64,000 bases of DNA from assembly GCA_951406725.2 (NCBI GenBank), contig OX597835.1, positions 46,004,001 through 46,068,000 on the forward strand, read 5' to 3'. Origin of the DNA: Octopus vulgaris. Taxonomy: Eukaryota. Below, piece by piece: positions 15,277 to 41,549 of this stretch (its first letter is position 1; the number at the start of each line of letters is the position of its first letter). The position numbers and the translations under genes were made by a program. The notes under the pieces were generated by a model. It was given only the letters and a program-made list of their open reading frames with translations. It had not been told where the DNA came from and ran no database searches.

Positions 15277-15690
15277 TATAAAATATTATTAGAGACAAAA
15301 CCACTATTTTGCAAAACAAACAAGGAAAGACTTAATCAATACATAAAATTTTAATAAATAGTCAAAAAAACCGCCACTACAATCGTTTCTTATCTTGATC
15401 GACAATCTTCAGGTGGACTTCAATAAGTCAGTTTCAAATTATGACTTCATAATTTGAAACTGACTTATTGAAGTCCACCTGAAGATTGTCGATCAAGATA
15501 AGAAACGATTGTAGTGGCGGTTTTTTTGACTATTTATTAAAATTTTATGTATTGATTAAGTCTTTCCTTGTTTGTTTTGCAAAATAGTGGTTTTGTCTCT
15601 AATAATATTTTATAATATTTTACTATAAAATTGGATTTAATCCTAAATCTGATTTTTTTCCCTGTAAATTTGGATTTATTCCCTAATATT

Positions 15691-17362: not shown

Positions 17363-17565
17363 TAATCCAAACATGAAAACACAAAGAGAAAACACAACTA
17401 CGCGAGGACGTGGAACAAATATAGTATTATTGGACGCTCAGGAAGGAAGGGAAGAAGGACGGTTTAACGTTTCGAGCGGAGCTCTTCGTCGGAAACATAG
17501 GAGAAGGAAAGATCCAGAGAAGGGAGGACAGAGGAAAAAATCGCCAACGGTACTCACGCGGTACA
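17359..17565 (-). mobile_element. Short (TA)n-nested Penelope-like cassette with hammerhead motif at 17462-17496
   Basis: Minus strand: gttt-CCGACGA-a-gagc(tcc)gctc-GAAA-CG-TT-aaac, with palindromic stem III AACGTT. Confidence 0.7.
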
Positions 17566-17641: not shown

Positions 17642-17682
17642 GCAAGATATGTGAAGTCGTGTGTTGAAACATATTTTGTTAC

Positions 17683-18204
<522 letters not shown>

Positions 18205-18291: not shown

Positions 18292-18596
18292 TGGAGGCGC
18301 AATGGCCCAGTGGTTAGGGCAGCGGACTCGCAGTCGTAGGATCGTGGTATGTGTGATGAGATCGGGCGTTGTATGTGTTTATTGAGCGGAAACACCTAAA
18401 AGGCTCCACGAGGCTCCGGCAGGGTGTGGTGATCGTTGCTGTACTCTTTCACCACTCCTCCTCTCACTCTTTCTGTTGGCCTGCTCGCTTAGCCAGCGGG
18501 GTGGCGTCATTCGAAGGCTAAAACAATGCGAACGCATTGTGACCACCGATCTGTAGCAACATCTGATGGTCTGGTCAGTCACGTGATCACGTGATA
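18292..18596 (+). mobile_element. tRNA-derived SINE family C
   Basis: A-box TGGCCCAGTGG, tRNA-like head ggcgcaatggcccagtggttagggcagcggactcgc, ends cacgtgatcacgtga. Homologous to 38348-38512. Confidence 0.85.
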
Positions 18597-18653
<57 letters not shown>

Positions 18654-18708
18654 TTATGTATGTATATATATATATCTATATATATATATATATATATAAA
18701 TATATATA

Positions 18709-18937
18709 CTTTATTTAAAGCAGCAGAAAATTCAACAAAACCTGTTACTCTGAGCTTCCCGTTGCCGTTCGTCGGACAGTTTTTGCTAGAAAAAAACTGT
18801 CCGACGAATGGCAACGTGAAACTCAGAGTAACAGGTTTTGTTGAATTTTCTGCTGCTTTAAATAAAGCATATTACTCTAGCACTGGTATTTGAGTACTCT
18901 TTTTCCCCCTTGTTTCACATTTATGTGTTTATTTCGG
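18709..18937. mobile_element. Palindromic Penelope-like cassette (arms about 18709-18784 / 18792-18867) with hammerhead motif at 18797-18834 (+)
   Basis: ctgt-CCGACGA-atg(gcaa)cgt-GAAA-CTC(a)GAG-TA-acag. The left arm preserves acg in stem II. (TA)n flanks. Confidence 0.75.
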
Positions 18938-19046
18938 TATATATATATATGTATATATATATATATAATTGCAGCGTGGAAGGTATTTGTAAGCCATTTA
19001 AGAAACACACAAAAGCCGTTCGATTCACTTCAACATTTAAGTTTAA

Positions 19047-19096
19047 TTTGTCAAAATATTTTCGTCGCTAAAATCCGCGACCTGTTCACTGACAAA
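19047..19096 (-). ncRNA. Hammerhead-like motif with G3-C8 core swap, in TA-nested cassette 18968-19120
   Basis: tttgtca-GTGAACA-g-gtcgc(ggatttta)gcgac-GAAA-ATAT-TT-tgacaaa: 7-bp stem I, 5-bp stem II, palindromic stem III. Confidence 0.6.
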
Positions 19097-19116
19097 AATC
19101 CGTGCTGCATCACGTG

Positions 19117-35913: not shown

Positions 35914-35949
<36 letters not shown>

Positions 35950-36157
35950 CGGGAAGGTTTACGAAAATAAACAAAAGACGAAGGCCGGTGGAGTACAAAC
36001 AAACAAATGTATTAGTATGGCGCTCAGGAATAGAAATAGAACAAGTCTTTTACGTTTCGACCCTACGGTCTTCGACAGAAAGATACACAGAAAAAAAACA
36101 AGGAGAGAAACAAGGAGAGAAAAATGCGTGTAGGAGCTAACGATCTATCATGGCGAT
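35950..36157 (-). mobile_element. (TA)n-nested Penelope-like cassette with hammerhead motif at 36046-36083
   Basis: tcttt-CTGTCGA-a-gacc(gtag)ggtc-GAAA-CG-TA-aaaga. Sister copy at 40557-40750. Confidence 0.7.
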
Positions 36158-39827: not shown

Positions 39828-40556
39828 TTTGGTGTAAAGAGTTCAGTGATGTATATAGGTATTCTACGCATATATTACTGTTCGCGAGTGCAGGCGCCCG
39901 TGTGTGTGTGTGAGTAAATGTTTGAATTTGTGAATGTGTGTATGTATCAGGTGAGTTATGCGTATGTGTTTCTCTGTTTGTTATAAAATACTGCAATATC
40001 TCAATGTGAATTCGTGTGTCTGTAAGATAAAGCGAGAGAGGAGGCGTTAACGCGAGAGTGAGCTATATGAGAAAGAGGTGATGCACACAGGGTGTAATAT
40101 ATGCGTCTATGTGTATGTAAGTGCAGATAGAACTTATGTGTGCGAGCTTTCTGCGCGCGCGTGTGGTTACATTTCTGTATAAGTATGTGTTTGTGGATGA
40201 AAGATCCCATAGGCATATGTGTCTATGTATATACAAACATGCATGCACGCACATCTATCTCTTTCTCTCTTTATCTCTCTAACTATATACCTATCTATCC
40301 ATGAACCCACAAGAGTAAACAAGAGAGATAGAGGCAGGCATAAACAAGGCAAATGTCCCTTGTATGCAAATATACTATGCAAATATATTTTTAAAACACT
40401 TTTCATTTATTTTTTCCAAAATATAATTGTTTTCCATACTTACAGTTGAGAAGGTCTTAATGACTGAAACCGGTACTAAAATGTTTTTTTTTATGATAAA
40501 ATTATTTTAGCGTTCTCTACCTTGACATTTTTCATTTTATATATATATATATATCT

Positions 40557-40750
40557 TGAAAGTTTACGATAAAAATAAAAGATGAAGACAGGTGGTGTAC
40601 AAAACAAACATATGTATTAGTATAACGCTCAGGAGTAGAAAAAAGTATTTTACGTTTCGACCCTACGCTCTCCTACTGAAAGGTACACAGAAAAAAGCAT
40701 GGAGAGAAACAAGGAGAGAAAAAATGTGTAGTGGCTAACGATCTATCATG
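40557..40750 (-). mobile_element. Diverged copy of the 35950-36157 cassette
   Basis: Collinear similarity (tgtattagta..cgctcagga..tttacgtttcgaccctacg..ggagagaaacaaggagagaaaaa..ctaacgatctatcatg). Confidence 0.8.
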
Positions 40751-41186: not shown

Positions 41187-41238
<52 letters not shown>

Positions 41239-41466
41239 GAAAGAAGGTTTGAAAATGCAATTTAGAAAAAGATGTTTATTTACTTTACCGGTTTCACTCT
41301 TTGGAAAAAGATTAACAAAAGTAACATGTGGAAGTTTGGTTGCGTTAATTATTGGTTGTTGCAAATTGCTACATTACATATATATATACAGTCTTTGGAA
41401 GCAGGGACATGTTAAGGACATAAAAAAGTACAACAGTATGTTGGGAATATAAAGAGGTTTAACAAG

Positions 41467-41549
<83 letters not shown>

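Follow-up and report, generated by a model that had tools for sequence, protein, structure and literature searches.

Penelope-like retroelements (PLEs) reportedly carry many hammerhead ribozymes, as Lunse is said to have described in 2017. Minimal type-I hammerheads lie in the pseudo-LTRs of metazoan PLEs (Cervera and de la Pena 2014, PMC4209133). Their activity in vitro is low, a U3-A8 family variant accounts for ~1,300 matches in Schistosoma mansoni, and in the Drosophila virilis Penelope element an intron ends at helix I (PMC4209133). Natural hammerhead variants also include U3-A8, a viroid U4C and a U10.1-U11.1 mismatch (Perreault et al. 2011, PMC3088659), as well as a phage hammerhead with A6C that is favoured by Mn2+ (PMC7151607). 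The hammerhead of the Anolis Poseidon element PAc cuts only in the presence of the PLE protein, and an engineered C3G/G8C exchange partly restores its cleavage; insertion in vitro went ahead without cleavage, and none of the reads for that element had its end at the cut site (PMC11167929). In a full mutant scan, no double change in the region around positions 3 and 8 other than the G-C swap gave rescue, and activity was low for all other changes there (PMC9901934); U4C and A6U would fall into this class. Published precedents exist for U3-A8 among PLE hammerheads and for U4C and A6C among hammerheads of other kinds. Natural G3-C8, A6U (U6) or A9C (C9) at the level of a family was not found in the literature searched, the coverage of which is incomplete.

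The stretch of DNA analysed here, the window, comprises 64 kb of the 2.8-Gb Octopus vulgaris genome (OX597835.1:46,004,001-46,068,000). It is rich in microsatellites, and no PLE coding remnants were found in it. A sequence-only reading of the window had proposed six hammerhead motifs with odd cores. All six were present and all are minimal type-I hammerheads (Table 1), named below by the first position of their cores; the positions 17462, 18797 and 36046 given earlier are ends of motifs and not starts of cores. The 7-bp stem I and 5-bp stem II claimed for the G3-C8 motif hold, with seven stem I pairs found by hand and six closed in the MFE structure. The core is flanked by stems I and II, GAAA and A15.1-U16.1 are present, residue 17 is other than G, and G5 and A9 are kept in the families of all six motifs. 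The canonical core C3-U4-G5-A6-N7-G8-A9 is replaced by G3-C8, U3-A8, C4 or U6 as family majorities. Two traits of minimal PLE hammerheads had gone unmentioned in the earlier reading, a short palindromic stem III able to pair two copies (19089, 40446, 41318, 17492 and 36078, with a near-palindrome in 18801) and an extra nucleotide after position 9 (19089, 17492 and 36078).

Table 1. Coordinates of hammerhead motifs and related features in the window
Feature	Position	Strand	Remark
5'-truncated pseudo-LTR fragment, Neptune-type PLE family Nep1, in TA microsatellite	18967..19111	-	97.9% to L155 over 145 nt
Minimal type-I hammerhead, G3-C8	19047..19096	-	core GUGAACA; from sequence, descriptor and fold
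G3-C8 motif, stem I	19096-19090 with 19053-19047	-
G3-C8 motif, core G3-U4-G5-A6-A7-C8-A9; then extra G	19089-19083; 19082	-
G3-C8 motif, stem II	19081-19077 with 19068-19064	-	closed by G10.1-C11.1
G3-C8 motif, GAAA; 6-nt palindromic stem III; U17	19063-19060; 19060-19055; 19054	-
G3-C8 motif, predicted cut	between 19054 and 19053	-	after residue 17
Minimal hammerhead, U3-A8, G7, weakened stem I	40443..40478	+	core UUGAGAA at 40446-40452; in family fragment 40303-40544
Minimal hammerhead, U3-A8, U10.1-U11.1 mismatch	41280..41324	-	core UUGUUAA at 41318-41312; in fragment 41233-41471
Minimal hammerhead, U6 (family CUGUNGA), Poseidon/Penelope-type PLE	36046..36083	-	core CUGUCGA at 36078-36072; fragment ~35923-36157
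Second, decayed copy of U6 family	40538..40750	-	core CAGUAGG
Minimal hammerhead, C4 (CCGACGA)	17462..17496	-	core at 17492-17486; majority subfamily; sister clade of U6 family
Minimal hammerhead, C4 (family CCGAYGA), 3-bp stem II, GNRA loop	18797..18834	+	core CCGACGA at 18801-18807; one arm of inverted pair
Inverted pair including 18801	~18683-18944		partner core at 18775-18769 (-), its GAAA decayed
Tails of C9 family, without motif	17672-17805; 17960-18026

The extra nucleotide between 9 and 10.1, the short palindromic stem III and the short stem I are shared with the published metazoan PLE hammerheads, as are the predominance of solitary truncated copies and inverted pairs and, in four of the six motifs here, G10.1-C11.1 (PMC4209133). 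In contrast, no G3-C8, C4, U6 or C9 core occurs among the rows compared from the alignment of that study (44 of 56), and its descriptor fixed the core. The mismatch of the 41318 motif resembles the natural variant in PMC3088659. The variants in the text of PMC3088659 and PMC7151607, which do not include G3-C8, A6U or A9C, are rare single ribozymes with tertiary contacts, whereas those described here are fixed in mobile families of thousands. The non-LTR retrozyme, built of head-to-tail non-coding monomers of 150-400 nt, was rejected as a model for the six window sites, which are solitary or inverted fragments.

Folding of 19047-19096 gave a z of -3.4, with 1 of 200 shuffles equally stable. For the remaining five motifs, stability did not exceed that of shuffled sequence (z between -0.56 and +1.6), as is expected of minimal dimer-type hammerheads. 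A dimer model reached -27.2 kcal/mol, about level with two monomers (-26.6) and poorer than an alternative duplex (-31.3); the energies do not favour the dimer and speak against the dimer mechanism proposed below. Using a descriptor that fixed G5, A9, GAAA, U16.1 and the stems and left positions 3, 4, 6, 7 and 8 free, we obtained six matches in the window against three in 20 pooled shuffles, and all six had a Watson-Crick 3-8 pair. This descriptor misses 40446, the window copy of which has a weak stem I, and detects 18801 only if a stem II of 3 bp is accepted. Over 800 kb of regions chosen blind to the motifs it gave 41 matches against 7-15 per shuffle. An Rfam scan of the window returned no hammerhead among the 150 matches listed of 288.

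To characterise the families, cores were counted by eye in the first 100 listed matches per pattern, in genome order and not chosen by core. The G3-C8 family has 4,988 pattern matches genome-wide, 1,939 with an 8-nt loop and 3,049 with a 9-nt loop. Among the matches listed, the exact core was present in 96 of 100 and G3 with C8 in 97 of 100 for the 8-nt loop, and in 86 and 92 of 100, respectively, for the 9-nt loop. The closest family copies are 96-100% identical, and contigs of four sequencing runs showed no change of at least 3% at 19082-19089. The parent ORF (L155:5979-7568) encodes RT motifs, a Cys linker and, at its C terminus, a GIY-YIG domain; the linker also occurs in the ORF of L158. 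At L155 and at six further places an RT plus GIY-YIG ORF precedes the motif in the same sense, and at L155 the motif stands ~1.1 kb downstream of the ORF across untranslated sequence, unlike in Anolis PAc (PMC11167929). With the Neptune and Penelope/Poseidon clades of EN+ PLEs (Craig et al. 2021, PMC8557442), the elements here share RT followed by GIY-YIG at the C terminus, truncation at the 5' end, insertion at microsatellites, partial tandems and inverted 5' copies, and the G3-C8 parent also shares a Cys linker. Copies of the G3-C8 family are often inverted or in tandem. By these features the carrier of the G3-C8 motif is classed as a Neptune-type PLE, the clade names Neptune and Poseidon being taken from motifs and an eight-sequence tree without reference sequences, with no full-length element recovered. 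At L155:8640-8665 a branch-point-like CTAAC, a pyrimidine tract and a CAG precede stem I by ~12 nt and may mark the end of a pseudo-LTR intron.

To examine if the 3-8 pair covaries, we compared the G3-C8 family with its sisters. Related ORFs of sister Neptune elements (269 of 508 and 206 of 487 residues identical) have a homologous motif downstream. The sister motif has 4,741 matches, and among those listed C3 with G8 occurred in 94 of 100 and G3 or C8 in none. In an alignment of 16 hand-picked, related homologues, positions 3 and 8 were paired in all 16 (nine CG, six GC and one UG), while stem II was 100% paired with an AU/GC swap. By this comparison, G3-C8 covaries with C3-G8 in homologous sister motifs; the rows being related, the swap counts as one evolutionary event. 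PAc likewise has its hammerhead in a pseudo-LTR, but there G3-C8 is an engineered rescue (PMC11167929), whereas a Neptune family carries it here as its natural state.

A genome-wide pattern search for the exact G3-C8 stem II with positions 3 and 8 both changed gave only 21 matches, 18 of which are copies of the family itself, and no canonical (C3-G8) sister with this exact stem II. The 18 comprised 13 mismatched pairs, three A-U, two U-A and no C-G, and we interpret them as decay after insertion. These copies (L243-L263) are biased towards G8, the commonest new state (11 copies), which is never combined with C3. At residue 17 the G3-C8 family has U and most C3-G8 sisters have C (window 19054; column 45 of alignment A1). 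Activity of a G3-C8 hammerhead is lower when residue 17 is C than when it is G (PMC3884650), and U17 may reflect avoidance of a G3-C17 mispair.

A core-free descriptor applied to 1.78 Mb gave 600 matches, comprising 247 singletons and 24 multi-copy clusters. Twelve clusters had G5 and at most one departure at position 4, 6 or 9, seven of them being families deliberately targeted. The 3-8 pair was intact in all 12 (seven C-G, four U-A and one G-C), and in none was a single change at 3 or 8 the family state. Under drift, single changes at these positions would be at least as common as double ones. The other 12 clusters had two or more departures at 4, 5, 6 or 9, and 11 were taken as chance; the twelfth, which has two copies and an unpaired 3-8 (CCGAUCC), comes from sequence that encodes a LINE reverse transcriptase. 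The same descriptor also recovered a further U3-A8 family of three copies (UUGAAAA; L264, L072 and L113).

U3-A8 is the family state at both 40446 and 41318. The exact pattern of the 40446 copy matched only itself and that of the 36078 copy three places, so DNA or corrected patterns were used instead. Among the nearest copies of a similarity search, 31 of 39 rows for the 40446 family carried UUGAAAA, and two of the remaining rows were the window copy. This family lies behind a Poseidon-like endonuclease at three loci (L080, L082 and L083). The 41318 family has UUGAYAA (UUGACAA or UUGAUAA) and lies behind a Neptune-like endonuclease at one locus (L305). U3-A8 in both Neptune-linked and Poseidon-linked families suggests that it arose probably more than once. 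U6 occurs in the 41318 family only in the window copy; judged against their families, this U6 and the G7 at 40446 are copy-specific. Two loci hold tandem non-coding repeats, one of 365 nt with a U3-A8 core (L314:2880-3300) and one of 359 nt with a canonical core (L164:3050-4550). Their monomers are alike in stems II-III, cannot be aligned elsewhere and are retrozyme-like.

The U6 family has 16,712 matches of the family form. Per 100 listed, position 6 was U in 96, A in two, C in one and G in one; the other core positions were C3 99, U4 97, G5 97, G8 96 and A9 100, and position 7 was U42/A26/C20/G12. Majority sequences of six subfamilies (43 copies) varied at 0 of 11 core, 0 of 16 stem and 0 of 4 loop columns compared to 35 of 82 flank columns, the flanks including low-complexity indels and the subfamilies being grouped by hand, two of them partly by residue 17. 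Within the motif, differences among them are confined to positions 7 and 17, which are free; G5, G12, A13, A14, U16.1 and a non-G residue 17 are fixed. With position 7 free, the other core positions at 96-100%, and core and stems invariant while the flanks diverge, the U6 lineage behaves as if selected. At L347, in a partial tandem, the U6 motif stands behind a Poseidon/Penelope-type ORF, and at L358 behind an endonuclease end (tblastn and motif); a Pfam search of the L347 piece gave no match. Two apparent links were dropped: the Neptune endonuclease upstream of the U6 motif in L304 belongs to another family, and the endonuclease in L083 belongs to the 40446 family. The double change in stem II of the 36078 copy was ruled out as family covariation, having only three matches genome-wide.

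The 17492 family, homologous to the U6 family, has 7,840 matches with C4 in 72, U4 in 26 and A4 in two per 100 listed. Its U4 state is linked to other differences and represents a canonical-core subfamily. The 18801 family has 354 matches (C4 92, U4 5 and A4 3 per 100 listed). The upstream sequence of 32 and 20 copies from the two C4 families yielded no parent ORF. The sister Neptune family with 4,741 matches, with the core CUGAUGC (L308:6168-6217, -), had C9 in 80, A9 in 15, U9 in four and G9 in one per 100 listed. With C4, U6 and C9, large families carry single changes at three positions that normally do not vary. Since the uncompensated A9C is fixed in a sister family, selection on the fold alone does not demonstrate fast cleavage.

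These counts bear on the claim that the variants are family states and not decay of single copies. A canonical core was the majority in none of the six families, and the claim stands for all six with the exceptions of U6 at 41318 and the private G7 at 40446; at 17492, C4 is the majority core beside the U4 subfamily. It was also correct that standard searches would miss such variants, as descriptors fixed on CUGANGA overlook tens of thousands of motifs in this one genome. The argument that paired double changes indicate selection on the fold, made with no mention of PLEs, is partly borne out by the covariation of G3-C8 against C3-G8 sisters, a single event here. Selection on the 3-8 pair and the fold is supported.

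Given fixation in families, linkage to PLEs, 3-8 covariation against sisters, and cores and stems kept while flanks diverge, we consider it probable that the motifs are minimal PLE pseudo-LTR hammerheads with family-state cores (apart from the two copy-specific changes), and that they are slow, dimer- and protein-dependent ribozymes under selection for their fold. A transcript through a partial tandem would bring two copies together, and the palindromic stem III would pair between them. Any Watson-Crick 3-8 pair (C-G, U-A or G-C) would dock residue 8 at the cut site. In hammerhead chemistry, the ribose of residue 8 is the general acid and G12 the general base. The RNA would be cut after residue 17, slowly and probably only with the element's own protein bound. 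U6 and C4 would be variants that this fold tolerates at the cost of speed, and the single truncated window copies would be passive products of retrotransposition.

Uncompensated U6, C4 and C9 cores would kill free hammerheads. On this premise, it is possible, if doubtful, that the G3-C8, U6, C4 and C9 cores are selected and would cleave because the reverse transcriptase of the cognate element completes the active site, making them protein-dependent ribozymes. The main rival is a non-catalytic structural role, in which the PLE reverse transcriptase would use the hammerhead shape for binding or priming. The shape would then be selected and cleavage not, so that the 3-8 pair and the stems are kept while positions 4, 6 and 9, which matter for catalysis, may drift. 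It would account for uncompensated C4, U6 and C9 fixed in families of hundreds to more than 16,000 matches, and it agrees with cleavage mutants that had no effect on insertion in vitro (PMC11167929) and with the weak activity of metazoan PLE hammerheads (PMC4209133). However, the residues fixed across the U6 subfamilies are those that cleavage needs, and canonical cores persist in most families; we judge a purely structural role unlikely.

Relaxed selection, in which an odd core hitch-hiked to high copy number from one master copy and the paired 3-8 is a leftover or chance, appears quite improbable. In its favour, high copy number requires only an active master, later constraint has left no sign at C9, G3-C8 arose in a single event and U3-A8 takes just two transitions. 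Nevertheless, drift favours single changes at 3 or 8, which characterise none of the 12 hammerhead-like families, U3-A8 occurs in both Neptune-linked and Poseidon-linked families, and none of the 27 core and stem columns varies among the U6 subfamilies. That U6 or C4 serves an overlapping signal, the 3' splice site of a pseudo-LTR intron, and not the ribozyme, is very improbable, as it leaves the paired 3-8 swaps unexplained and an AG follows U6 in one subfamily only (A7, 26 of 100 listed). The idea draws on the intron-end-like sequence before stem I in the G3-C8 parent, on the long pyrimidine tracts that run into stem I in the U6 and C4 families, and on the Penelope intron of D. virilis (PMC4209133). 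Copy-specific decay of canonical hammerheads, true of U6 at 41318 and G7 at 40446, is refuted for the rest by the variant majorities in six of six families.

Covariation of G-C with C-G at the tertiary 3-8 pair, known until now mostly from rescue in the laboratory, is seen here at the level of natural families. Real as it is, the G3-C8 swap could have been predicted from bench experiments; the selected U6 and the uncompensated C9 are more surprising and testable. Matched sister pairs (G3-C8 and C3-G8, U6 and A6, C4 and U4, C9 and A9) allow a direct test of what keeps PLE hammerheads in place: cutting, cutting with the help of protein, or a role as structure. If the active site is completed by a protein, the working core would be wider than the textbook one, and only the cognate element could switch the ribozyme on.

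Two further features of the window were recorded. Two canonical hammerheads (CUGAAGA) that belong to a further family, at 15412 (-) and 15479 (+), form an inverted pair around a perfect palindrome (15404-15487). A GC-richer repeat lies at 18294-18590 between two TA tracts; it has a tRNA-like head and is presumably SINE-like.
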